DNA of 58,765 nt, taken from a virus (taxonomy: Duplodnaviria > Caudoviricetes). The stretch lies in the IMG/VR virus record IMGVR_UViG_3300049828_000243, positions 1 through 58,765 of that record. One strand, given 5' to 3'. The notes beneath the pieces are model-generated. The model saw only the letters and a program-made list of their open reading frames with translations. It was not told the DNA's origin and did not search any database. Numbering within the stretch: the stretch's first letter is position 1; every line of letters starts with the position of its first letter. Shown here piece by piece: positions 33,384 through 56,134 of this stretch. Both the position numbers and the translations under genes were made by a program.

Positions 33384-34844
33384 ATGGCCGTTATCAAAGT
33401 TGGGTCGCAAGACAAGCCCGCAACGCAAGCCAAGCCGAACAAGACTGTCGGCGAGGCCGCAGCCAAGCAGATCAAGATCGTCGAGATCATCAACCAAGGC
33501 GACAAGCTGCTGTTGCCGGAAGACATGTCGTTGGAAGAAGCAGTCCAGTCGCTGCAACGTCAGATCAAGGCGAACGAGGAAATGATCCTCGCTGCCGCGA
33601 ACTTCGACTACCATCCGTACGACACTGCGAACGCAATCATGCGCGTGCTCGAAGCCGAATACGGCTACATCCAGCAGGAGAAGACGCCCGGTATCTTCGG
33701 CCCGACTCCGCCGGTCATGGTCGATGTCGAAAACGGCGTGAATTCGTCGGTCAAGGTGCCGTGGGGCTCGTTGTCGCTGCCCGGCGTCAACGGCACGCTG
33801 CAGATCACTTACGCACACTCCGCCACTGGCGTACAGGGTTCGCTGACCGGCAAAATCACCAAGGGCTCATCGCCGGTGTTCGACAAGATCGTGCAGAAGG
33901 TCCGCGATTACCTCAAGGACAACTCGCTGTACATGCACAAAGCGATTCGCGTCACGTTCTCGGACTACGACAACAACGAACTGGAGCTGCCGATCATCAA
34001 GTTCATCGACACGCAAATCGACCGCAGCGCGCTGGTGTACTCCGATGACGTGACGCAGGCGCTCGAAACCAACCTGTTCACGCCGATCCGTCGCCGTCAA
34101 GACTTGGCTGCCAACGGCATCCCATTCAAGCGCGGTGTATTGCTTGGCGGGCCATTCGGCACCGGCAAAACATTGGCTGCCCGCTATGCCGGCGCGCTGT
34201 CACAAGCCCACGGCATGACCTTCATGTACGTTACCAAGGCTGTTGATCTGCCGTTCGCATTGCGCTTCGCTTCACGTAACAGCTCCAACGGCGTCGTGAT
34301 GTTCTGCGAAGACATCGACCGCACAACCAATGGCAACCGCACCGCCGACATTGATTCCGTGCTCAACACACTGGACGGTGTCGACACGAAAAGCATGGAC
34401 GTGCTGCTGGTGCTGACCACAAACGACATCGAGAGCATCAACAAGGCCATGCTGCGCCCGGGCCGCCTCGACGCCGTTATCAACGTACAACCGCCAGATG
34501 CCAAGGCAGTCGAATCACTGGTGCGCCTGTATGCAGGCCACACTGTGCGCCACGATCAGGACTTGAGCGCCGTCGGCATGACACTCGCCGGCAACATCCC
34601 GGCGACCATTGCCGAGGTGGTCAAACGCGCCAAGCTTGCTCAGTTGAGCATGAACCAGCCGGGCGAACTCGTCGAGCATCTCAGCAACGATGCGCTGATC
34701 GCCGCATCGCGCTCGATGAAGCACCAATTGGAGCTGCTGCACGGCGTTACTGTCGAAGTGACCGTGCCCACCATCGAGCAACGTCTGGAAATCGCCATCG
34801 AGGGCATCGAGAAGATCAAGTCGAAGGTCGCCGAGCTGGAGTAA
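33384..34844 (+). CDS. AAA+ ATPase (classic clade) with a large N-terminal domain
   Basis: KRGVLLGGPFGTGKT, Walker B-like FCEDID, LNTLDG, TTN and LRPGRLD second region of homology. Confidence 0.9.
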   Translation: MAVIKVGSQDKPATQAKPNKTVGEAAAKQIKIVEIINQGDKLLLPEDMSLEEAVQSLQRQIKANEEMILAAANFDYHPYDTANAIMRVLEAEYGYIQQEKTPGIFGPTPPVMVDVENGVNSSVKVPWGSLSLPGVNGTLQITYAHSATGVQGSLTGKITKGSSPVFDKIVQKVRDYLKDNSLYMHKAIRVTFSDYDNNELELPIIKFIDTQIDRSALVYSDDVTQALETNLFTPIRRRQDLAANGIPFKRGVLLGGPFGTGKTLAARYAGALSQAHGMTFMYVTKAVDLPFALRFASRNSSNGVVMFCEDIDRTTNGNRTADIDSVLNTLDGVDTKSMDVLLVLTTNDIESINKAMLRPGRLDAVINVQPPDAKAVESLVRLYAGHTVRHDQDLSAVGMTLAGNIPATIAEVVKRAKLAQLSMNQPGELVEHLSNDALIAASRSMKHQLELLHGVTVEVTVPTIEQRLEIAIEGIEKIKSKVAELE

Positions 34845-40888: not shown

Positions 40889-41262
40889 GCGACGAACTTG
40901 AAAACGCAGCGGCGATGGAAGCACTGAAATCGTACAAGATAAAGAGCAACGAGTACTACGTGCTAAACCTGAGTAGCATCATTCGCTTCGACGCTACTGA
41001 ACTGATCTCTTCGATCACGCGTGAGCAGATGCTTACCATCGTCGTAAGCCAAATAATCCAAGCACTGGCATCAGGGCGCATGAACTCGTTCGACGCAACT
41101 GTCACTCGCCAGTGCCCGAACTGCCAAGTCGCTGAATCTGCGTGCACGCATAATCCGCCCGAATTTGTGGACACCTCTCCTGCGTCTGTGAAAGCCGCTA
41201 CAGACTTCGCCATGGCGATCGTGCAAGCTAACAGCGAAAAAGAAAAAGGCGCGCTGCAATGA
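40885..41262 (+). CDS. Hypothetical protein
   Basis: ATGA-coupled on both sides; CPNC. Confidence 0.65.
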   Translation: MSDELENAAAMEALKSYKIKSNEYYVLNLSSIIRFDATELISSITREQMLTIVVSQIIQALASGRMNSFDATVTRQCPNCQVAESACTHNPPEFVDTSPASVKAATDFAMAIVQANSEKEKGALQ

Positions 41263-41954
41263 CGCAGTTCACAGGTCACTGGTCCTTCTCAGCACTAATG
41301 GTGTACGAGACTTGCCCGGGCCGGGCAAAGCTTCGGTACATCGAAAAACTGCCAGAGCCGCCACGCAAAGAAAACGATCCTCTGGCACGCGGCTCAGCAA
41401 TTCACAAGAACCTTGAGCTGTACGTGCAGGGCAAAGAAGCACTGAGCAACCAAGCCAAGGAACTGAAAGCGTTCGAGCCCGCACTCAACTATATGTGCGA
41501 GCTGTACATCGCTGGGCAAGTCATCACCGAAGAACCGTGGTGGTTCGACGAAAACTGGCAACCGACAAAAGACCGTAGCCGCATTTGGCTGTGGTCGTCG
41601 CTCGACTTCTGCGTAGACGACGACAAACGCGTTGTCGTCGGCGATTACAAAAGCGGCAAGTCGGTGTACAAAGCAGTTGAACATGTGCAGCAGTTGCAAC
41701 TTTACAGCGCACTTGCCGCAATCAAGTACCCCGACGCAGACACGATTGTGTCTGAGCTTTGGTACATGGATGAAGGTCACGTCAAGCCGCTGGTGTTCAA
41801 CCGCGACGACGCGCTGCGCTACGTCAATCGCTTCGATCAGCGTGCACAGCGCATGTACGACGACAAGTTCTTCCGCTTCAACCCTACGGCCCACAACTGC
41901 AAGTGGTGCCCGTATTCGCCACGCGGTACCGGCGCTTGTCCGGTCGGCGTGTAA
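41259..41954 (+). CDS. PD-(D/E)XK Cas4/RecB-like exonuclease
   Basis: WSFS...CP; D..DYKSGK; QLQLY; C-terminal CKWC...CP (1+3 Cys arrangement). Confidence 0.85.
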   Translation: MTQFTGHWSFSALMVYETCPGRAKLRYIEKLPEPPRKENDPLARGSAIHKNLELYVQGKEALSNQAKELKAFEPALNYMCELYIAGQVITEEPWWFDENWQPTKDRSRIWLWSSLDFCVDDDKRVVVGDYKSGKSVYKAVEHVQQLQLYSALAAIKYPDADTIVSELWYMDEGHVKPLVFNRDDALRYVNRFDQRAQRMYDDKFFRFNPTAHNCKWCPYSPRGTGACPVGV

Positions 41955-41982
41955 CTACTTAATTAGCTACTTGGAGGTAGCA

Positions 41983-43455
41983 ATGGCTATGAAAAGTTCA
42001 ATTTTTGACTACGATACGCTGCGACGCGGCGGACGCAACGTATACGAAAAGCGCATCGCAGAACTTGAAAGCTTGCTCAAGCAGCAGAATGCAGAGCTTG
42101 AAAAGCAAACAAAGGTGCTCGAAAAAGTCGCAAAAGCACCGCACCAGTTTGGTGTAATTTTGCGTATCGACACGGATCGCGTCGTACTCAGTAACGGCGG
42201 CATCGTCAGCGTGCCGAAAGAGTGCTTGCAGGTTGACGTGAAGGTCGGCGATCAAGTGCGCATCGACCCACAAACCAATATGGTCGTGGCGAAGGACAGC
42301 GCACCGCAGTACGGCGGTGTCGCGCGCGTCACTGACGTGCTCGCCGACAACCGTCTGCTTGTAGACGACAACGGCACGCAGAACGACATCGTCGCCACTG
42401 ACGGTGTCGAGTTCAAAGTCGGCGACACTGTACGACTGGACAGTACGCGCAACGTGGCGCTTGGCGTCGTGCCGCGCACGAAAACCAGCTTAGAGCAGTC
42501 ACGTACCACTGGCATCACGTGGGACGACATCGGCGGCAACGACGGCGCCAAGCTCGAGATGATCGAGGCCATCGAACACCCACGACTGTACAGCAACGTG
42601 TTCGCTGCGTACGGCAAAAAGCCGGTAAAAGGTATCGTGCTGTACGGCCCTGCCGGCTGCGGCAAGACAATGCTCGCCAAAGCTGCAGCAACTGCGGTCA
42701 ACAACGGCGCTGGTAACGGCTTCATCTACGTGAAAGGCCCGGAAGTGCTCAGCAAGTGGGTAGGCGAAGCCGAAGCCACCATCCGCAGCCTGTTCCAAGC
42801 AGCACGTGCATACAAGGCCGAGCACAACACTCCAGCCGTCATCTTCATTGACGAAGCCGAAGCGCTGCTCAGCCACCGCACAGGCCGTCAGGCTATGATG
42901 GAAAAGACCATCGTGCCTACGTTCTTGGCAGAGATGGACGGTCTCGACGATACTGGCGCACTCGTCATCCTCGCTACGAACTATGTCGAGAACCTCGACC
43001 CTGCTGTCGTTCGCGAAGGGCGCATGGACCGCAAGATCAAGGTGTCGCGCCCGACGCACGCAGACGCGCTCGACATCCTCCAGCGCGGGCTGTCCAAGAC
43101 CGTGCTTGCGAAGAGCTTGAGCGCTGCCGACGCCGCGAAGATCGCGGCCGACGCGTTCTACTCGCCGCAGCTGACCATGTACCACGTCGAGACTGACGAA
43201 GCCGTCGTTGCCGTGACCATTAGCAACATCGCGTCCGGCGCCATGCTCGCCGGCATTGTCGAGCAATCTGCCACGCACGCAATGCGACGCGACTTCGCTT
43301 CCAAGGCCAAAAAGCCAACTGGCGTCTGCAAGGTAGACATCGAGTACGCGGTGAAAGCCGTGTTCGACATGAACAAGGACGTGAGCCACACCGAAGCGCT
43401 CGCAGAGTTGCTGCGCGGCGCCGACATCAAGGGGATCAAGCGTTATGCTCAATGA
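41983..43455 (+). CDS. ARC/Mpa-like proteasomal AAA+ ATPase
   Basis: GGAGG RBS; coiled coil, two OB-like segments, WDDIGG, GPAGCGKT, KGPEVLSKWVGE, FIDE, TIVPTFLAEMDG, GRMDRKIK, SGAM. Confidence 0.85.
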   Translation: MAMKSSIFDYDTLRRGGRNVYEKRIAELESLLKQQNAELEKQTKVLEKVAKAPHQFGVILRIDTDRVVLSNGGIVSVPKECLQVDVKVGDQVRIDPQTNMVVAKDSAPQYGGVARVTDVLADNRLLVDDNGTQNDIVATDGVEFKVGDTVRLDSTRNVALGVVPRTKTSLEQSRTTGITWDDIGGNDGAKLEMIEAIEHPRLYSNVFAAYGKKPVKGIVLYGPAGCGKTMLAKAAATAVNNGAGNGFIYVKGPEVLSKWVGEAEATIRSLFQAARAYKAEHNTPAVIFIDEAEALLSHRTGRQAMMEKTIVPTFLAEMDGLDDTGALVILATNYVENLDPAVVREGRMDRKIKVSRPTHADALDILQRGLSKTVLAKSLSAADAAKIAADAFYSPQLTMYHVETDEAVVAVTISNIASGAMLAGIVEQSATHAMRRDFASKAKKPTGVCKVDIEYAVKAVFDMNKDVSHTEALAELLRGADIKGIKRYAQ

Positions 43456-43768
43456 CCTTCGCAACAAAACATCGTCGTGGTTCAAGCCTGCGAAGCAAGA
43501 TCAAGCTGCGAAAGAAGAACCTCAGAAGGAAGAAGCGCCTGCGAATAGCAGGCGCGAAACGCCTCCAGAGGTAGTAACTGTGCTCCGAATTATCGGCAGG
43601 CAGACCATCGACACGAAGGGTGACGAGTTTCGATGTGGTTGCGGCGCATGCAAATACTGCTGCGACGGTGGCAACCAGTCTGATCCGCGTAACTTGGGTC
43701 GCGACACGTGTTTCAACTGCGGGATGCCTCGTTTGAGGTTTGTCGTCGATGCTGAAAGACGCGCGTAA
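43445..43768 (+). CDS. Cys-rich protein, paralog 1
   Basis: MLNDLRNKTSSWFKP; CGACKYCC; CFNC. Confidence 0.7.
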   Translation: MLNDLRNKTSSWFKPAKQDQAAKEEPQKEEAPANSRRETPPEVVTVLRIIGRQTIDTKGDEFRCGCGACKYCCDGGNQSDPRNLGRDTCFNCGMPRLRFVVDAERRA

Positions 43769-44063
43769 GAATCGCCAGTGGTTTAAGCCCACTGCACCCG
43801 TAGTCGACAAAAAACTCACAGCCGAAGTCATCGAGAAGCAAGACGTCGCGCCACCAAAGTACGACAAGGCTTGTCACATCTGCGGCGGCTGCAACGACTG
43901 CTGCAGCATCGCGCTTGTGTTTACCGGTAAAATTTACAACCGTACGTACGTGGTTGAGCTGTTGCGCTCAGGCAAGTGCAAGTCATGCAACAGGCCTCTA
44001 AGCGCTGACAGATCACATTGGGTAGGCAAAGAGTATAAAAAGGCACATGGGCATGGACTATGA
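43749..44063 (+). CDS. Cys-rich protein, paralog 2
   Basis: GAGG RBS; MLKDARKNRQWFKP; CGGCNDCC; CKSC. Confidence 0.7.
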   Translation: MLKDARKNRQWFKPTAPVVDKKLTAEVIEKQDVAPPKYDKACHICGGCNDCCSIALVFTGKIYNRTYVVELLRSGKCKSCNRPLSADRSHWVGKEYKKAHGHGL

Positions 44064-44769
44064 ACTGCTTGCCGCATTGAAAGGCCTCGCGATCTGTTCG
44101 GCACGACCAGACGAACACCACGTGCAGCTCGCAAAGAAAGGGTACTGCGTGATCGAAACAGGCCGCTTCGGCAAACACGTTTCGATAACGTCTTCTGGCA
44201 AAAAACTGCTGGCTTCACTGTCCGAAGAGCAAAACATCGCGCTGACAGGCGCTGCTATTGCGCGAACAATCCGTCGCCCTTACAGTAAGGCTGTGGACCA
44301 GCCAGTAGGTGACGCTGGCCCGGCTAAAAGCCGGCACTCCTCACGTGGTTCGGTGCCACGTACAGTCACCGCCACCGAGACCCAAGCGACTGCCGCTAAA
44401 CCGGCAGCCAAACCCAGCGAGATCGCCGCTGGATCGCTGAAAGGCATCAAGACGGGCTCGACGGTCATCGAGTCTCCTGCCAAAGCAACATCGCCCCCCG
44501 TTGGTCCGTCGAAGGTGGGGGCTCCTTCAAAGCATGCTGGGCTGAGCCGCGGGGAAGCCGCGACGACCGCGGGTCGGCGCGAGCAGCCAAAGGCAAACGC
44601 CAGCAGCCCAGCCCCCAACGCTGTCCGTGTCGCTACCGGACCGCTTGTGACGTACTACCCCGTCTCCTACGCATCAAAGGTGTCCAATGGCACGTGCGTC
44701 GTCACGCAAAACAAACTCTTCCGAGCCTTCCCTCTGGCCGCATCAAGTAGCGACGTGGTCGTTTCTTAA
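44047..44769 (+). CDS. Hypothetical protein: wHTH-like N-terminal ~70 aa, low-complexity tail running through the structured region
   Basis: L.KKGY...ITSSGKKLL wing-like motif; tail is atypical and overlaps the helicase gene by 83 nt. Confidence 0.45.
   Translation: MGMDYELLAALKGLAICSARPDEHHVQLAKKGYCVIETGRFGKHVSITSSGKKLLASLSEEQNIALTGAAIARTIRRPYSKAVDQPVGDAGPAKSRHSSRGSVPRTVTATETQATAAKPAAKPSEIAAGSLKGIKTGSTVIESPAKATSPPVGPSKVGAPSKHAGLSRGEAATTAGRREQPKANASSPAPNAVRVATGPLVTYYPVSYASKVSNGTCVVTQNKLFRAFPLAASSSDVVVS
44237..44645 (+). ncRNA. Candidate large structured RNA
   Basis: More than ten nested stems with A-rich loops and multibranch junctions (see findings). Confidence 0.5.
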
Positions 44770-46078
44770 ATCGACGTGCATCGGGTTCGACAACAGCGAC
44801 CCCGGCACTGGCAAGACCGCAGCGCAAGTGGTGCATTACGCCACGCGGAAAGACCGCAAGCGATGCTTGGTCGTCAGTCCTAAGACGCTTATGGTGCCCG
44901 CATGGGGCACAGACTTTGCAAAATTCGCGCCTACAGTAAGCGTGGCATTTGCACACGCCGGCTCTCGCGAAGCTGCGTTCGATAGTAAAGCCGATGTCGT
45001 CGTCATCAACACTGACGGCGTCAAATGGCTCGCGGACAACCTGCACTACTTACGTGATTTCGATCACTTGATCATCGACGAATACACGTGCTTCAAGCAT
45101 GCGAGCAGTCAACGCTCCAAAGCGATGCTAAAGCTGAGCAGGATGTTCAAGCACAAGTACATGATGTCCGGCACGCCGAATCCAAACTCGGTCATGGAGC
45201 TGTGGCATCCGTGTTTGTTACTGGATGACGGTAAGCGGCTCGGCAAAAGCTACGTGCGCATGCGCAACGTGATGCAAGCGTCCAAGCCACGCCCCGGCGC
45301 TCCGGACTTCGTCGAATGGACAGACAAACCCGGCGCTAACCAAGCAATCCACGCAATTCTGGCGGACATTACCATACGCCACGAATTCGAGCGCGTGATG
45401 AAGCATGTCCCGCCCAACCACAAGCACCACATGCCGTTCGAACTCGGCGCCAAGGCTAAGAAAGCCTACGACGAAATGGAACGCTCGTGCCTGTTGGAAC
45501 TGGACAATGGCGACGTAAGCGCCGTGCACGCCGCTTCGTTGCGTACCAAGCTGCTGCAGATCGCGTCTGGTGCCGTGTACACCGGCGGCGAAGACGGCAA
45601 GTACGTCGTCATCGACAAGTCGCGCTACGAGCTTGTAGTCGATCTGATCGAAGCGCGCAAGCATAGTGTCGTGTTCTTCAACTGGCGCCACCAACGCGAT
45701 CAAATCATGGAGATGTGTGCAGAACGCAACATCTCATGCGCGCTAATCGACGGCTCTGTGTCGCAAGAAAACCGCGACCAGATCATCGCTGACTACCAAG
45801 CCGGTAAGTACCAGACGATTCTGCTGCATCCGCGTACTGGCGCACACGGTCTTACGCTGACAGCCGGCGACACCACGATCTTCGTGTCTCCGCTGTACGA
45901 AGCCGATTTGATGAAGCAAGGCATTGCACGTATCTACCGCGGCGTGCAAGACAAAGTCACCAACACTATCTTCATCGAAGCGATGGGCACAGTCGAGCAC
46001 GCGGTTTACGAGCGTCTTAACGGTAAGTACGAGCGCATGGCGGACTTGCTTGACCTTATGAGACACCACGGAGAGTGA
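44687..46078 (+). CDS. SNF2-family helicase
   Basis: PHQ, DPGTGKT, IIDE, SGTP, KLLQIASG, GAHGLTL, ARIYR motifs. Confidence 0.9.
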   Translation: MARASSRKTNSSEPSLWPHQVATWSFLKSTCIGFDNSDPGTGKTAAQVVHYATRKDRKRCLVVSPKTLMVPAWGTDFAKFAPTVSVAFAHAGSREAAFDSKADVVVINTDGVKWLADNLHYLRDFDHLIIDEYTCFKHASSQRSKAMLKLSRMFKHKYMMSGTPNPNSVMELWHPCLLLDDGKRLGKSYVRMRNVMQASKPRPGAPDFVEWTDKPGANQAIHAILADITIRHEFERVMKHVPPNHKHHMPFELGAKAKKAYDEMERSCLLELDNGDVSAVHAASLRTKLLQIASGAVYTGGEDGKYVVIDKSRYELVVDLIEARKHSVVFFNWRHQRDQIMEMCAERNISCALIDGSVSQENRDQIIADYQAGKYQTILLHPRTGAHGLTLTAGDTTIFVSPLYEADLMKQGIARIYRGVQDKVTNTIFIEAMGTVEHAVYERLNGKYERMADLLDLMRHHGE

Positions 46079-46765: not shown

Positions 46766-46938
46766 TGACTGATACTGAGCGCGACATCGCGTTGACAAAA
46801 GCTATCGTGCGTAGCATCGAGCACTGCACAGGTTATCCGCCACGCAAGCGCAGCATGTGGCCGTTCGTCACCGGCCTCGCGTTGTACCTAGTCGTTGCGA
46901 CGTGCGTCGTCGCTGCATCATTGGAGAAAGTTCTGTGA
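46765..46938 (+). CDS. Small membrane protein (57 aa; not in the ORF track)
   Basis: TAATG coupling upstream, GTGA coupling downstream, C-terminal TM. Confidence 0.6.
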   Translation: MTDTERDIALTKAIVRSIEHCTGYPPRKRSMWPFVTGLALYLVVATCVVAASLEKVL

Positions 46939-47492
46939 GCACGAACCACGTCATGGTCGACATCGAAACGTTGTCCTTGCAGCCGAATGCCGTAGTACTC
47001 TCGATTGGTGCTGTGCGGTTTGACCCGCACAGCGATATTGTTGCGTCGCATTTCAACGCCAACGTCAACGCGCAACCGCAGATTGCTGCAAAACGCGACG
47101 TTGACGCTAGCACAGTCGGATGGTGGCTGTCTCAGTCTGAGCAAGCACGCAACGCCGTGTCCTCTTCATTGCTAGGGTTAGCTCCAGACCCTGAGACTGT
47201 GTTGCGCTTGCTCAACGATTTTGTCTGCGAAGAGCCAGACACACGCTTGTGGGGGTACGGCGCTACGTTCGACAACGCAGCGTTGCGGTCGTTGTACAAC
47301 GACTTCAACGTCAAGCCGGCTTGGTCGTACAAACACGACCGATGCGCTCGCACTATCGCAAATCTCGAAGCCGCAACGACGGTACCAAAACTCGAATTTG
47401 CGGGCGTAAAACACAACGCTTACCACGACGCACTGAACCAAGCGCGCTACGTGCAGCACATCCTCAAACATACATGCGTCCGCGTGTCATGA
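46935..47492 (+). CDS. DEDDh 3'-5' exonuclease
   Basis: MVDIETL, WGYGATFD, HNAYHDA; GTG start with GGAG RBS. Confidence 0.85.
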   Translation: MSTNHVMVDIETLSLQPNAVVLSIGAVRFDPHSDIVASHFNANVNAQPQIAAKRDVDASTVGWWLSQSEQARNAVSSSLLGLAPDPETVLRLLNDFVCEEPDTRLWGYGATFDNAALRSLYNDFNVKPAWSYKHDRCARTIANLEAATTVPKLEFAGVKHNAYHDALNQARYVQHILKHTCVRVS

Positions 47493-47534: not shown

Positions 47535-49025
47535 ATGACGCTCGCGTACGAAGCGTACAAGAAAGCGCTGAACGCCCGCCCACGACAAAACACGATGGCG
47601 TCGCGGGAGCGCGCCCAAGTAGTTGAAGAAGGCCGCGCAATAATGCGCGGAATACTACAGCGCGGCGGCATGTCTACGTCTGACCGGCAAATGCGTACTA
47701 TGTCGCTGTGGTGCGCAGGCGTCAATGCTTTTCGCCCTATCGCCGCACACGGCACGCCCCAATGGACGTCCGACATGCAAACACTTGCGACGTTGGAACT
47801 GGCGTCAGAAAGCGTTTCAACAGTTCTCGCAACGTGCCCGGCTAATACCAACCTGTCGGACGCCATAAGCGCAGGGCTGATAGCTCGCGCAGTCGACAAC
47901 AAAACCGGAAACGTGTTGTACGTCGCTCCTGAACGCACATACCGTGATTGCGTGACTGGAGATACACATCTACGCCCGACCGACGCAAGCTCGCTGCATG
48001 AGTGTTTCTACGTGGATTACAGCACCGACGGCGCGAAAGCTAGTGGTGTTACGACACAACTGCGTGATACGCAGGTGTGCGCAATAACCTCCGAACGATG
48101 GTCCAAAATCCACATGGTGAAAGCGGTACTGCAAGGCGGCGACGTTGCTCTACCAGTACTTGTGTCGCCGTTTAGCGGCGTAACCAGCGACCAGTACCGC
48201 ACGCTCAACGGAGTTGCGTATCACGTGTCAGTTACGCTTAACCGTCGGCTGTTCGTCGACCGCGGTTCGAACACAAACGACCCTGACATTCCGCGGTATC
48301 ACCACGCATCACGTCCGTGGAACGACGAAACACGCATGCACAAAGTGGTTCACGCAAACGCCGTGCACGTCGGTATTGAACTTGAAGTCGACTTCGTCAC
48401 TTTCTTGGAGCGTCGCGTGTTCTACCGCGATTTTACGCGCTTGGCAGGAGCAAACGCATCTGCGGAGCACGACGGCTCGCTTCGAGCCGGCACTGGACTC
48501 GAAATCATCACGCGCCCGCTGGCACTTAGCGAGTGCCGCGAAAAAGATGGCTTTCTCTACAGCATGCTGGACCTCCTGCGCAAGAAAGAAGCCGACGCAC
48601 CGGACGACAAACACGGACTGCATGTGACAATAAACGCGGCAAACCGCTACTCAATCACAGACGTACATCGCGCACGCGACTTCGTCCGCGATATTCGCAA
48701 GTACCTCCCAGCGCTGACTGGTCGTGTACCGAACGGTTACTGCGACATACACGCTAGTTCAGGGCACCATTCAGCAATAAGCTTGCGCAGTTCGCAGGCT
48801 GTAGAAGTGCGTCTGGCTCGCGCTACTGTCGACTTCAAGACGCTCAACGAGCGCATCGACTTTTCTGTAGCGCTTCTCGAATATGGTCGCGCACTTGGAT
48901 GCGACGAGTTCTCATACACGTTCGAGTCTTTCAAAAACTGGCTTCGCGACAAAAAAGACAGCCTTCCATTTTTGCATAACAAACTGTTCAAGTTCGCTCA
49001 GGAGGCGGCATGTGCATCGCAATAG
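47535..49025 (+). CDS. Putative amidoligase (COOH-NH2 ligase, glutamine synthetase-like fold)
   Basis: GIELEV, HDGSL, GLEIITRP, GLHV, VEVR motifs in the C-terminal half; GGAGG RBS. Confidence 0.8.
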   Translation: MTLAYEAYKKALNARPRQNTMASRERAQVVEEGRAIMRGILQRGGMSTSDRQMRTMSLWCAGVNAFRPIAAHGTPQWTSDMQTLATLELASESVSTVLATCPANTNLSDAISAGLIARAVDNKTGNVLYVAPERTYRDCVTGDTHLRPTDASSLHECFYVDYSTDGAKASGVTTQLRDTQVCAITSERWSKIHMVKAVLQGGDVALPVLVSPFSGVTSDQYRTLNGVAYHVSVTLNRRLFVDRGSNTNDPDIPRYHHASRPWNDETRMHKVVHANAVHVGIELEVDFVTFLERRVFYRDFTRLAGANASAEHDGSLRAGTGLEIITRPLALSECREKDGFLYSMLDLLRKKEADAPDDKHGLHVTINAANRYSITDVHRARDFVRDIRKYLPALTGRVPNGYCDIHASSGHHSAISLRSSQAVEVRLARATVDFKTLNERIDFSVALLEYGRALGCDEFSYTFESFKNWLRDKKDSLPFLHNKLFKFAQEAACASQ

Positions 49026-50161
49026 CAAAACCGGAGTTCGCCAAGTTGAGCGAAGAGACACTTCGCACGTGTTTCACCAACAACCCTGACGGTGCCGGTT
49101 TCGCGTACCACGACGGATCGTCCGTTGTCGTCTTCAAAGGCTTCTTCAAGTTCGAGGACTTCTACGAAGCCTACAAGAAGCACGACATCAATTCAAAGCG
49201 CGCACTCGTGCACTTCCGCATTACTACGCGCGGTGACACGTCGGCCGACAACTGCCATCCGTTTAAGCTCAACGAAGGCGCACTGGTGCACAACGGAACA
49301 ATCTACAGCATCGGCGCGCAGAGCACAGGAATGAGCGACACGGCCATGCTCGCACAGATGCTGTACGACGTGCCAAAGAAGCTGTTCCTCAACCTTCGCA
49401 TGATGATCGACAGCTTCGTAGCCGGCAGCCGAGTTGCGATCCTTACGAACGACAACGAGTTTTTGCTGTTCAACGAGAAGCAGTGGCACGTTGAAAACGG
49501 CGTCATGTACAGCAACACTACGTTCAAGCCGCGTGTTGTGTACGTACCACCGAAATACACGCCGTCGGTAACGCCGCCGAGTCCGTATCAGCATTCACGC
49601 ACTGTACTTGGCACAGCTCCATCGGCGGCCACGTACGGACCAAACAAAGCAACGTACAACTCACGCGAAGAACATTTCGCCAAGCTGCGCGCCAAGTACG
49701 GCAAGAAAGCGAAGAAGCAGCAGAAAGCCCAAGAACAACGCATGCGCGAAGAGCTGTCGTTGGAGAGCAACGTATACAGCTTGGGCCTCGATCTGTTCGA
49801 GATGTTCGGCGCGGACAGCGACAAGCACGACCCGAAACCGTTCATCTGGTACCAGAACGGACTTTTCACGCGTGATCGGCCGACGCTGCCGTACAAATCA
49901 AATCTGCGCCTCGAAATGAAAGTGGTTCGTTACTTTCGCGAAGCGTATGGCCGCGCCCCGGAGTTCGCTGTGGACTGGGAAGCGCTTACGTTGATCACAG
50001 CGTCAATCATTGACGAGGAAGAAACATGTCCGGAAACACCCAGCAAGACGACATCTCCAATCTCAGCACAGTTGGTGGTTTCGAGTTCACCGTGCTCAGC
50101 ACCAACCTCCCCGGCGACCTCCCTGTCGCCATCTACGTCAACGGTACCATTGTTCGACTGA
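49010..50161 (+). CDS. Class II (Ntn) glutamine amidotransferase with C-terminal extension
   Basis: N-terminal MC, NPDGAG, HFRITT, NCHPF, HNG, SDT. Confidence 0.9.
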   Translation: MCIAIAKPEFAKLSEETLRTCFTNNPDGAGFAYHDGSSVVVFKGFFKFEDFYEAYKKHDINSKRALVHFRITTRGDTSADNCHPFKLNEGALVHNGTIYSIGAQSTGMSDTAMLAQMLYDVPKKLFLNLRMMIDSFVAGSRVAILTNDNEFLLFNEKQWHVENGVMYSNTTFKPRVVYVPPKYTPSVTPPSPYQHSRTVLGTAPSAATYGPNKATYNSREEHFAKLRAKYGKKAKKQQKAQEQRMREELSLESNVYSLGLDLFEMFGADSDKHDPKPFIWYQNGLFTRDRPTLPYKSNLRLEMKVVRYFREAYGRAPEFAVDWEALTLITASIIDEEETCPETPSKTTSPISAQLVVSSSPCSAPTSPATSLSPSTSTVPLFD

Positions 50162-55362: not shown

Positions 55363-55577
55363 TGTCGTCGCGCTCAACTCACATGCACACGTACAGTCGC
55401 TCTGACGTGTCGTCGAAGAACCAAGAGTCGAAGGAAATTGAGGAGGCGCTCGCGCGCTTCCTCAAGTCCGGAGGCAAAATCAAACATCTGCCCGGCCCGG
55501 GGCAAGGCACAGACATCTCTGTGCGCAAAGCGTCTATCCCAGCACCTATTCACCGTATGGCAAAAGGAGCTGTATGA
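55362..55577 (+). CDS. SutA RNAP-binding-domain-like protein
   Basis: EIEEALARFLKSGGKIKHLP recalls the SutA FLxxGGK(I/V) signature. Confidence 0.6.
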   Translation: MSSRSTHMHTYSRSDVSSKNQESKEIEEALARFLKSGGKIKHLPGPGQGTDISVRKASIPAPIHRMAKGAV

Positions 55578-56134
55578 GCGCCATCGTCGACAACTACCAA
55601 GAACGTGCCCACACCACGGCAATCTATCCAGAAGAACGCGGCGTCGAGTACACGGTGCTCGGACTCTGCAGTGAAATCGGCGAGATCGCCGGCAAGATCA
55701 AGAAGCAGATTCGCGACGGCTCGAAATGGAACGGCGAGCAACTTGAGGATTACCGCAAGGCTGTCCTGCACGAGGTCGGCGACGTACTGTGGTACGTCGC
55801 AGAGCTGTGCACGACAATGGGCATCAAGTTCAATACGGTCGTGTACGCCGCGCGCTCGTTCGAAGTTCCTCCTGTTACAAACGTCGGCCTATCGTTACGT
55901 CTGATCCTTACGTGCAGCATGCTTGCGTCGGTAGCGCTCGCACACGCCGAAAATGGCACGAGCGACGAGCTGAAAGAAGCCGTAACGCAGATGCTTATCC
56001 CTGTCGTGGCCGGTGTGCGTCGCATGTGCGAAATGTACAACGCCGACATCGAAATCGTTATGACGCTGAATTTGGGCAAGCTCGAAGCTCGCGCGCAAGC
56101 AGGCACGCTCGGAGGCAACGGTGATAATCGCTGA
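55574..56134 (+). CDS. MazG-like nucleotide pyrophosphohydrolase
   Basis: YQ..A..TAIYP, LGL.SEIGE...KIKK..RD, EVGDVLWY, N..KL..R...GTL.G.GDNR. Confidence 0.85.
   Translation: MSAIVDNYQERAHTTAIYPEERGVEYTVLGLCSEIGEIAGKIKKQIRDGSKWNGEQLEDYRKAVLHEVGDVLWYVAELCTTMGIKFNTVVYAARSFEVPPVTNVGLSLRLILTCSMLASVALAHAENGTSDELKEAVTQMLIPVVAGVRRMCEMYNADIEIVMTLNLGKLEARAQAGTLGGNGDNR

Follow-up and report, generated by a model that had tools for sequence, protein, structure and literature searches.

What might a phage do with a motor of the proteasome? ATPases of the ARC/Mpa type are understood almost wholly as gatekeepers of the Pup-proteasome system, in Actinobacteria and a few other phyla, and the locus described here carries a gene of this kind in a viral genome. 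The window, by which is meant the whole 58,765-bp stretch of DNA that was analysed, is coextensive with IMG/VR virus record IMGVR_UViG_3300049828_000243, a tailed-phage record of 92% estimated completeness, and on its plus strand a single intact open reading frame (ORF) encodes an ARC/Mpa-like AAA+ ATPase, P0001 (Table 1). The comparisons set out below lead us to regard the product as probably, though far from certainly, an active, stand-alone hexameric AAA+ unfoldase of the ARC/Mpa lineage that would act on particular proteins without a proteasome.

Domain architecture and family membership

An initial annotation of this DNA, made from its letters and translations, had recognised in P0001 a coiled coil, two OB segments and an AAA module, and both Pfam and an AlphaFold model bear this out. 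The model, built with 36 homologues in the alignment, is a confident one (predicted local distance difference test, pLDDT, 88.6; predicted template modelling score, pTM, 0.70). The Pfam AAA family (PF00004) matches residues 218-355 at 118.4 bits, and the proteasomal-ATPase OB family (PF16450) matches two stretches, the best of them, residues 113-164, at 34.4 bits with a cut-off of 23. When the model was compared with the PDB using Foldseek, ranks 1-30 were all Mycobacterium tuberculosis Mpa chains, aligned over 470-484 columns with template modelling (TM) scores of 0.63-0.68 and 26% identity, and proteasomal Rpt subunits came next, from rank 31. By Pfam, by the model and by this full-length structural alignment, P0001 has the domain architecture of ARC/Mpa. 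A sequence search of the PDB placed Cdc48 entries on top, because the two AAA modules of Cdc48 each match one query module, and the Mpa entry 5KWA covers the OB and AAA parts in one stretch, residues 53-397. The motifs VKGPEVLSKWVGE, TIVPTFLAEMDG and GRMDRKIKVSRP and the short motif SGAM, all quoted in the initial annotation, are found in the translation, which ends in KRYAQ.

Among the NCBIfam models the best match is TIGR03689 (proteasome ATPase, pup_AAA, an equivalog), which aligns P0001 residues 23-471 with model positions 15-489 of 512 at 270.9 bits; with E = 2.1e-80 over this span the match is far beyond chance. Models of PAN and CDC48 score about 100 bits lower. The PAN models TIGR01242 and NF003069 reach 156.0 and 167.0 bits, short of their cut-off of 500, and the Cdc48/p97 model TIGR01243 reaches 166.4 bits, short of 802.65, and is matched in its D2 region only. 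P0001 has one AAA module, whereas Cdc48/p97 proteins have two in tandem and an N domain. Its matches in PHROGs are to generic AAA families only. The curated cut-off of TIGR03689 itself is 504.75 bits, and in control searches it was exceeded by the ARCs of Nocardioides (829.6 bits) and Corynebacterium (730.6 bits); the ARCs of Nitrospira (438.8 bits) and Akkermansia (428.1 bits) and the protein of a Nanoarchaeota metagenome-assembled genome (MAG; 406.9 bits) fall below it, as do P0001 and the members of the viral clade described in the next section (205.6-356.8 bits). Judged by these profiles, P0001 is an ARC-type motor in kind, yet strictly speaking it does not belong to the ARC family of the Pup-proteasome.

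The features of a classic-clade AAA protein are present in P0001, namely Walker A and Walker B motifs, an aromatic-hydrophobic-Gly pore loop, a sensor-1 Asn and arginine fingers. Walker A reads GPAGCGKT (residues 222-229), the DE of Walker B occupies positions 290-291, and the pore loop is W259-V260-G261. In an alignment of the 36 homologues, which are 38-44% identical, G222, P223, G225-T229, V260, G261, D290, E291, N333, R344 and R347 are invariant, and the pore-loop position 259 is occupied by Y, W or F. Position 224 is a nearly invariant P in the homologues but Ala in P0001. As read from this alignment the catalytic motifs are intact, and there is no sign in them of a dead enzyme.

A mostly viral sister clade of the cellular ARCs

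The phage ATPase is not a singular oddity: it has at least 224 relatives on IMG/VR viral contigs, and copies in cultured phages have already been annotated automatically. A word-indexed search returned 1,467 matches to P0001 among the 8,000 candidates scored, and the best non-self matches reach 40-45% identity across more than 90% of the length, several of them bearing the Joint Genome Institute (JGI) name 'proteasome-associated ATPase'. An exhaustive search of representatives yielded 3,011 clusters at E <= 1e-30. A single-protein scan of viral contigs found no relatives and an alignment-based scan did find them; in IMG/VR they are encoded in 224 of 596 pattern-matched stretches. The best 80 of these 224 relatives, on contigs from 7 kb to more than 1 Mb, were analysed as viral loci and compared with 80 cellular loci.

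Relatives are common in cells as well, being found in 556 of 600 stretches from species-representative genomes. The top four cellular matches come from MAGs labelled Gammaproteobacteria, Saccharibacteria, Patescibacteria and Rikenellaceae (37-42% identity), the fifth from a Nanoarchaeota MAG (36%), and the true ARCs of Nitrospirota, Actinomycetota, Verrucomicrobiota and Poribacteria are 29-35% identical to P0001 over their full length. Scored against P0001, full-length viral proteins reach about 190-350 bits and cellular ARCs 170-220, followed by single Cdc48 modules (116-137), PAN (108-123) and FtsH (82-107). Cultured phages offer no record covering 80% or more of P0001. The best matches among them, with 35% identity across residues 182-476, come from the Brevundimonas phages vB_BpoS-Strzyga and vB_BpoS-Polewnik, whose gene, STRZYGA_00230 in the former, already carries the GenBank annotation 'proteasome-associated ATPase'.

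Two trees were computed. The first has 98 rows and used LG+G4 with support from the Shimodaira-Hasegawa-like approximate likelihood ratio test (SH-aLRT), with PAN, Cdc48 and FtsH from archaeal and bacterial genomes as outgroups. The second is a 36-row subset under LG+C20 comprising the window protein, 10 of the 33 full-length viral proteins, 4 of the 19 with a short N-terminus, 4 of the 9 MAG proteins, 8 of the 20 ARCs, 3 of the 6 PANs, and 3 of 5 each for Cdc48 and FtsH. The topology is the same in both. The union of ARC and viral proteins has a support of 100 in each tree, and within it the canonical ARC clade (25 rows in the larger tree, two DPANN archaeal MAGs included) has 96 in the 98-row and 88 in the 36-row tree, and the viral clade, which contains P0001, has 93 and 88, respectively. 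PAN, Cdc48-D2 and FtsH fall outside the ARC group both times, PAN as a separate clade with a support of 99-100. In the larger tree the viral clade has 57 rows, made up of 33 full-length viral proteins, 19 viral proteins with another N-terminus, four MAG proteins and the window protein, whose neighbour there is L012. P0001 is placed in the sister clade and not inside the cellular ARC clade in either tree, and on this phylogeny the viral clade is a separate, mostly viral sister of cellular ARC.

The identification as an ARC/Mpa-type ATPase with which the initial annotation began has therefore held, with TIGR03689 as the best model, Mpa on top in Foldseek and an ARC grouping with a support of 100. 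It had also proposed a comparison by hidden Markov models and phylogeny with ARC, PAN and Cdc48, which comes down on the side of ARC in both trees. Because its OB domains are present and it groups with ARC, P0001 is not the kind of generic Cdc48/FtsH fragment, devoid of OB domains, against which that identification was to be judged.

Several features of the wider family may be recorded here. The ARC-type ATPases of the two DPANN archaeal MAGs (L088 and L112) occupy a basal position in the canonical bacterial ARC clade, with the supports of 96 and 88 given above, and in one of these two genomes Cdc48 was present and no PAN scored over the cut-off. A viral subgroup (L003, L019, L022, L029, L033, L035, L042-L047, L052-L067 and L076, together with the Brevundimonas phages) has retained the AAA and C-terminal domains, with a different N-terminal part of about 120-180 amino acids that cannot be aligned to the coiled-coil/OB part; the altered N-terminus suggests that substrate-recognition domains have been swapped in these proteins. 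Some homologues (P0076, of 755 amino acids, L053:8396-10834, P0173 and P0174) have an insert of about 290 amino acids near Walker A. Among the precomputed Pfam entries for P0076 are an HNH endonuclease and an intein splicing domain, and inteins thus seem to have invaded the ATPase gene in some phages.

Docking tail and proteasome partners

The penultimate C-terminal residue is Y, F or W at 43 of the 74 canonical ARC loci (GQYL being the end in 35) but in 0 of 66 viral-clade proteins. P0001 has its Tyr at position -3 and so lacks the 20S-docking motif, and the extreme C-termini are not conserved across the 36-sequence alignment. Profile searches of the 58,765-bp record for the 20S proteasome (PF00227), PafA/Dop (PF03136) and Pup (PF05639) found none of them. 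Whole-record searches were extended to 50 of the 80 viral loci, 25 of these records being at least 90% complete, and PF00227 and PF03136 were each found in 0 of the 50 ARC-bearing virus records, Pup having been sought in the window genome only. The initial annotation had pointed to an end in KRYAQ in place of GQYL and to the absence of a visible 20S subunit or Pup; both statements stand, and the first extends to the viral clade as a whole, the second, for 20S, to the 50 virus records. Since there is neither a 20S-docking tail nor a 20S or PafA/Dop gene in this phage or its clade-mates, the ATPase most likely works without a proteasome.

These same data bear on another possibility, that the ATPase is a phage-supplied activator that docks on host 20S, HslV or ClpP so that its targets are degraded. 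Lineage speaks for it, as the cellular relatives tested all partner a protease or derive from a protein that does, and a few viral-clade proteins have hydrophobic tails, such as the RVI of L010 and L013, that are like the II/VI/IV tails of the Nitrospira/Verrucomicrobia ARC subclade. We nevertheless consider this unlikely in view of the viral-clade tails, which lack the penultimate aromatic residue throughout and are unconserved, and of the nearest cultured phage relatives, which infect Pseudomonas and Aeromonas. Both of these genera possess HslUV and ClpP, and neither is known to have a 20S.

Proposed activity

In the reading that we favour, a stand-alone unfoldase, six subunits would form a ring, by homology with Mpa and PAN, with the tandem OB domains making an entry collar and the N-terminal helices pairing as coiled-coil arms that could catch a substrate or an adaptor. 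The W-V-G pore loops would then draw the polypeptide through the ring at the expense of ATP, and certain target proteins would be dismantled or inactivated in this way early or midway in infection. What the analysis shows directly is the architecture, the intact catalytic motifs, the place in the trees, the lack of the proteasome components looked for and the accessory position of the gene; the hexamer, the unfolding activity, the lack of need for a protease and, most of all, the nature of the targets are inferred. It is possible, as the initial annotation proposed, that the targets are host complexes such as defence proteins, stripped or inactivated via phage adaptors, and no adaptor for the ATPase was identified in the window phage.

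A number of observations weigh against this reading. The TIGR03689 score of P0001, 270.9 bits, is below the cut-off of 504.75, and functional equivalence with ARC therefore cannot be assumed. The trees separate the viral clade as a branch of its own with no more than moderate support (88-93), and among its 57 rows are 4 from MAGs with bacterial labels, for which no phage or prophage origin could be shown; the neighbourhoods of these four copies have only the ATPase and a DUF1360 protein in common with the viral loci. When the 61 other window proteins were compared with the 80 viral loci, none was found in more than three loci except a second AAA ATPase, with 38 matches that are mostly cross-matches to the ARC-like gene. 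Conservation of the neighbourhood had been put forward in the initial annotation as a check, and it fails for the window neighbours over these loci, so that no partner or conserved neighbour in the window phage hints at a target. No DUF1360-like protein is encoded in any frame of the window genome (best E = 0.23), and a host protease may still serve as partner.

An accessory gene among replication genes

The nearest cultured relatives of the window phage are the Pseudomonas phages KPP25 and phiR18 and the Aeromonas phage phiA008, with 38-41% identity in the terminase and 25-30% in the primase. A megablast of the 38-50 kb region against cultured phages gave no match. The genes that the window has in common with KPP25 are those for the second AAA ATPase (45% identity), primase (30%), RecB-type exonuclease (32%), SNF2 helicase (32%) and polymerase (33%), and they follow one another alike in both; by these shared genes the window phage is a distant relative of KPP25. 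No ARC-like gene was found in KPP25, where the sole match, of 25.6 bits, is to its other ATPase. Where KPP25 has a single 100-aa ORF (ORF062) between exonuclease and helicase, the window has three orphan ORFs (43445-44769) besides the ARC-like gene, and the ATPase gene is on this account an accessory acquisition.

The position of the gene raises the possibility that the ATPase is a remodeller in replication or recombination, one that loads, unloads or recycles the primase-helicase, the SNF2 helicase or the exonuclease. It lies in one string of plus-strand genes, with the RecB-type exonuclease before it and the SNF2 helicase after it, 1.1 kb past the primase; promoter and terminator scans round it gave signals at chance level only, with none above chance between it and the flanking replication genes; and in locus L005 the ATPase comes after primase and the second AAA ATPase. 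The KPP25 module, however, runs without such a gene, the neighbourhood is not conserved across the 80 viral ARC loci, and a double-OB collar with pore loops is typical of protein translocases, all of which makes a role of this kind improbable in our view.

Two of the three orphans, which follow the ATPase directly, are overlapping Cys-rich ORFs of 107 amino acids each with a common N-terminal motif around WFKP, followed by an apparently unstructured stretch, and a C.CG.C..CC cluster. Their pairwise similarity is weak (E = 0.01), and they are probably a tandem duplication. Neither had a match in the Pfam and other family scans, and a homologue search with the first returned only itself. A link between them and the ATPase is hypothetical.

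Table 1. Features of the ATPase gene and of its surroundings in the window (positions are those of the 58,765-bp stretch).
Feature	Position	Strand	Basis and remarks
Second, unrelated AAA ATPase	33384-34844	+	phrog_10440, 535.4 bits; KPP25 ORF048, 45% identity
PD-(D/E)XK / RecB-family exonuclease (backbone, upstream flank)	41259..41954	+	PF12705, 89.9 bits; phrog_69; 32% to KPP25 ORF061
Ribosome-binding site GGAGGT	41974..41979	+	3 nt before ATG; read in sequence
ARC/Mpa-like AAA+ ATPase gene (P0001)	41983..43455	+	single intact ORF, ATG to stop, 490 aa
Long N-terminal helix, residues 11-50, predicted coiled-coil arm	42013..42132	+	DSSP on AlphaFold model; aligned to N-terminal part of TIGR03689
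Tandem pair of OB barrels, residues 55-104 and 110-162	42145..42468	+	PF16450 and model strands
Single classic AAA module, about residues 180-375	42520..43107	+	Pfam AAA and model
C-terminal helix/strand domain, residues 381-487	43123..43443	+	AlphaFold model, Foldseek, C-terminus survey; penultimate residue not aromatic
Two overlapping 107-aa Cys-rich ORFs	43445-43768, 43740-44063	+	directly 3' of ATPase, same accessory block
240-aa ORF, no family match, last of accessory block	44047..44769	+	ORF call and family scans
SNF2-type helicase (backbone, downstream flank)	44687..46078	+	PF00176, PF00271; phrog_62, 320.5 bits; 32% to KPP25 ORF063
Rv2179c-like 3'-5' exoribonuclease domain protein	46857-47492	+	147.1 bits
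496-aa orphan	47535-49025	+	Atlas structural neighbours
Class-II glutamine amidotransferase domain protein	49010-50161	+	follows the 496-aa orphan
MazG-like pyrophosphatase	55574-56134	+	

A recurrent DUF1360 neighbour in the viral clade

When the genes up to 5 kb from the ATPase were clustered without bias, for 67 viral loci and the window, one recurrent neighbour emerged. This small membrane protein, marked by the motif CPYC.SHW, is in each case encoded just downstream on the same strand. By profile search it lies at most about 800 bp downstream of the ATPase in 21 of the 80 viral loci (L004-L070) and in 2 of the 80 cellular loci (L084 and L085). Both of the latter are viral-clade MAG copies, and the protein was found in 0 of the 78 other cellular loci. 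All three of the proteins tested matched DUF1360 (PF07098) at 25.5-36.9 bits, over a cut-off of 21; examples are L018:3039-3458 and L010:11661-12197. The pairs of DUF1360 protein and ATPase are scattered over the full-length viral clade. A literature search returned no title or abstract on the function of DUF1360.

From this distribution it can be argued that the ancestral role of the clade was linked to the membrane, exercised with or on the downstream DUF1360 protein (in its extraction or control, for example), and that the partner has been lost or replaced in the window phage. The restriction of the pairing to viral-clade members and its spread through the full-length part of the clade speak for such a role. 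The absence of a DUF1360 protein from the window genome tells against it, DUF1360 has no assigned function, and adjacency alone does not prove interaction; a membrane-linked origin strikes us as rather doubtful, about on a par with the remodelling role.

A bolder proposal would make the viral clade the motor of a phage system of targeted unfolding, in which a tag or adaptor of the phage's own takes the place of Pup and host defence or regulatory complexes are dismantled. Candidates for the tag or adaptor in the window phage are the two Cys-rich ORFs, or tagging by a putative amidoligase/amidotransferase pair 4 kb downstream, and in other clade members the DUF1360 membrane protein is a candidate partner. 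As a whole this is speculative and we think it very improbable; if it were true, phages would be both a reservoir of ARC-type ATPases and a vehicle for them between phyla.

That the gene is merely a cellular one, brought in by misassembly or by host contamination of the viral contig, might be suspected from the MAG origin of the four closest 'cellular' copies, but it is effectively refuted by the terminase large subunit, portal, major head and head-closure genes on the minus-strand arm and the DNA polymerase gene on the plus-strand arm of the record, by the overlapping, same-strand position of the ATPase gene among phage replication genes with a G+C content similar to that of its flanks, and by the relatives, at least 224 of them, on viral contigs.

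Relation to known systems

The closest parallel is Mpa/ARC itself (TIGR03689; PDB 5KWA, 5KZF and 7PXC), with which P0001 has in common the domain order of coiled coil, two OB domains, AAA module and C-terminal domain, which provides its best full-length match by family and by structure, and which is the sister group in the trees. It differs in being only about 26% identical to Mpa and 30-33% identical to cellular ARCs, in being phage-borne, in lacking a GQYL or aromatic tail, and in belonging to a genome that has no Pup, PafA/Dop or 20S. Corynebacterium is known to keep pupylation and ARC without a 20S proteasome, and its ARC is a precedent for an unfoldase of this type that functions without the proteasome; the two Corynebacterium ARCs in our set end in LPGN and RRSA, not GQYL. 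Unlike P0001, however, Corynebacterium ARC is a full member of TIGR03689 (730.6 bits) inside the actinobacterial clade, and it still works with Pup. PAN/Rpt proteins (TIGR01242) resemble P0001 in the coiled coil, OB ring and classic AAA module, but PAN has one OB domain where P0001 has two, and the PANs in the set mostly end in MFG or FFG. The Strzyga/Polewnik protein belongs to the same viral clade and comes from cultured phages of a Gram-negative host, yet it is homologous to P0001 in the AAA and C-terminal domains only, with some 140 N-terminal residues unaligned, and it matches TIGR03689 only from model position 173 onward.

A full-text search of one literature library brought up nothing, in titles or abstracts, about an ARC/Mpa-like ATPase of phages, and in the searched passages of the paper on the Brevundimonas phages the words 'proteasome' and 'ATPase' each occur 0 times. 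A broad, mainly viral clade that is sister to ARC, lacks the docking tail and has a 20S or PafA/Dop gene in 0 of 50 records appears not to have been described before; its recurrent DUF1360 partner and its exchangeable N-terminus likewise appear to be undescribed. This clade is carried by phages from about 40 kb to more than 600 kb. If its members are active, infecting phages make use of their own dedicated protein unfoldase, and host proteins would be taken apart by a route distinct from the usual small inhibitor proteins. Because the N-terminus differs in some of its members, the clade is relevant to substrate selection by AAA+ unfoldases by way of exchangeable N-domains, and also to the spread of the ARC family between phyla. 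The recurrent DUF1360 partner offers a concrete handle on the viral clade.

Other features of the record

Gram-negative lysis genes had been reported for this phage in the initial annotation, a claim that finds no support, as none of the endolysin, holin and spanin families was detected in family scans of 40 other window ORFs. The one pointer to a Gram-negative host is that the cultured phages closest to this one infect Pseudomonas and Aeromonas. No tRNAs were found in a scan of the window.

The 496-aa orphan downstream of the accessory block has viral Amidoligase_2 clusters as its structural neighbours in the Atlas, with TM scores of 0.45-0.57, and it is followed by a protein with a class-II glutamine amidotransferase domain; by these modelled similarities the two look like a phage amidoligase/amidotransferase pair. 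The 496-aa product has no Pfam match and no tblastn match among phages. Amidoligase chemistry is of the same kind as that of PafA/Dop. An amidoligase-like gene as a regular, Pup-ligase-like partner of the viral ATPases was considered and ruled out, PF12224 being present in just 4 of the 50 ARC-bearing virus records.

The second AAA ATPase of the window is unrelated to P0001, and its counterpart in locus L005 stands directly upstream of the ARC-like gene. Further along the plus-strand arm are genes for a protein with an Rv2179c-like 3'-5' exoribonuclease domain and for a MazG-like pyrophosphatase (Table 1). The two arms of the record differ in composition, the minus-strand structural arm (1-27600) having 59-65% G+C (56.5% in its last bin, 26-28 kb) and the plus-strand early/replication arm (28000-58765) having 54-59% G+C and a positive AT skew.

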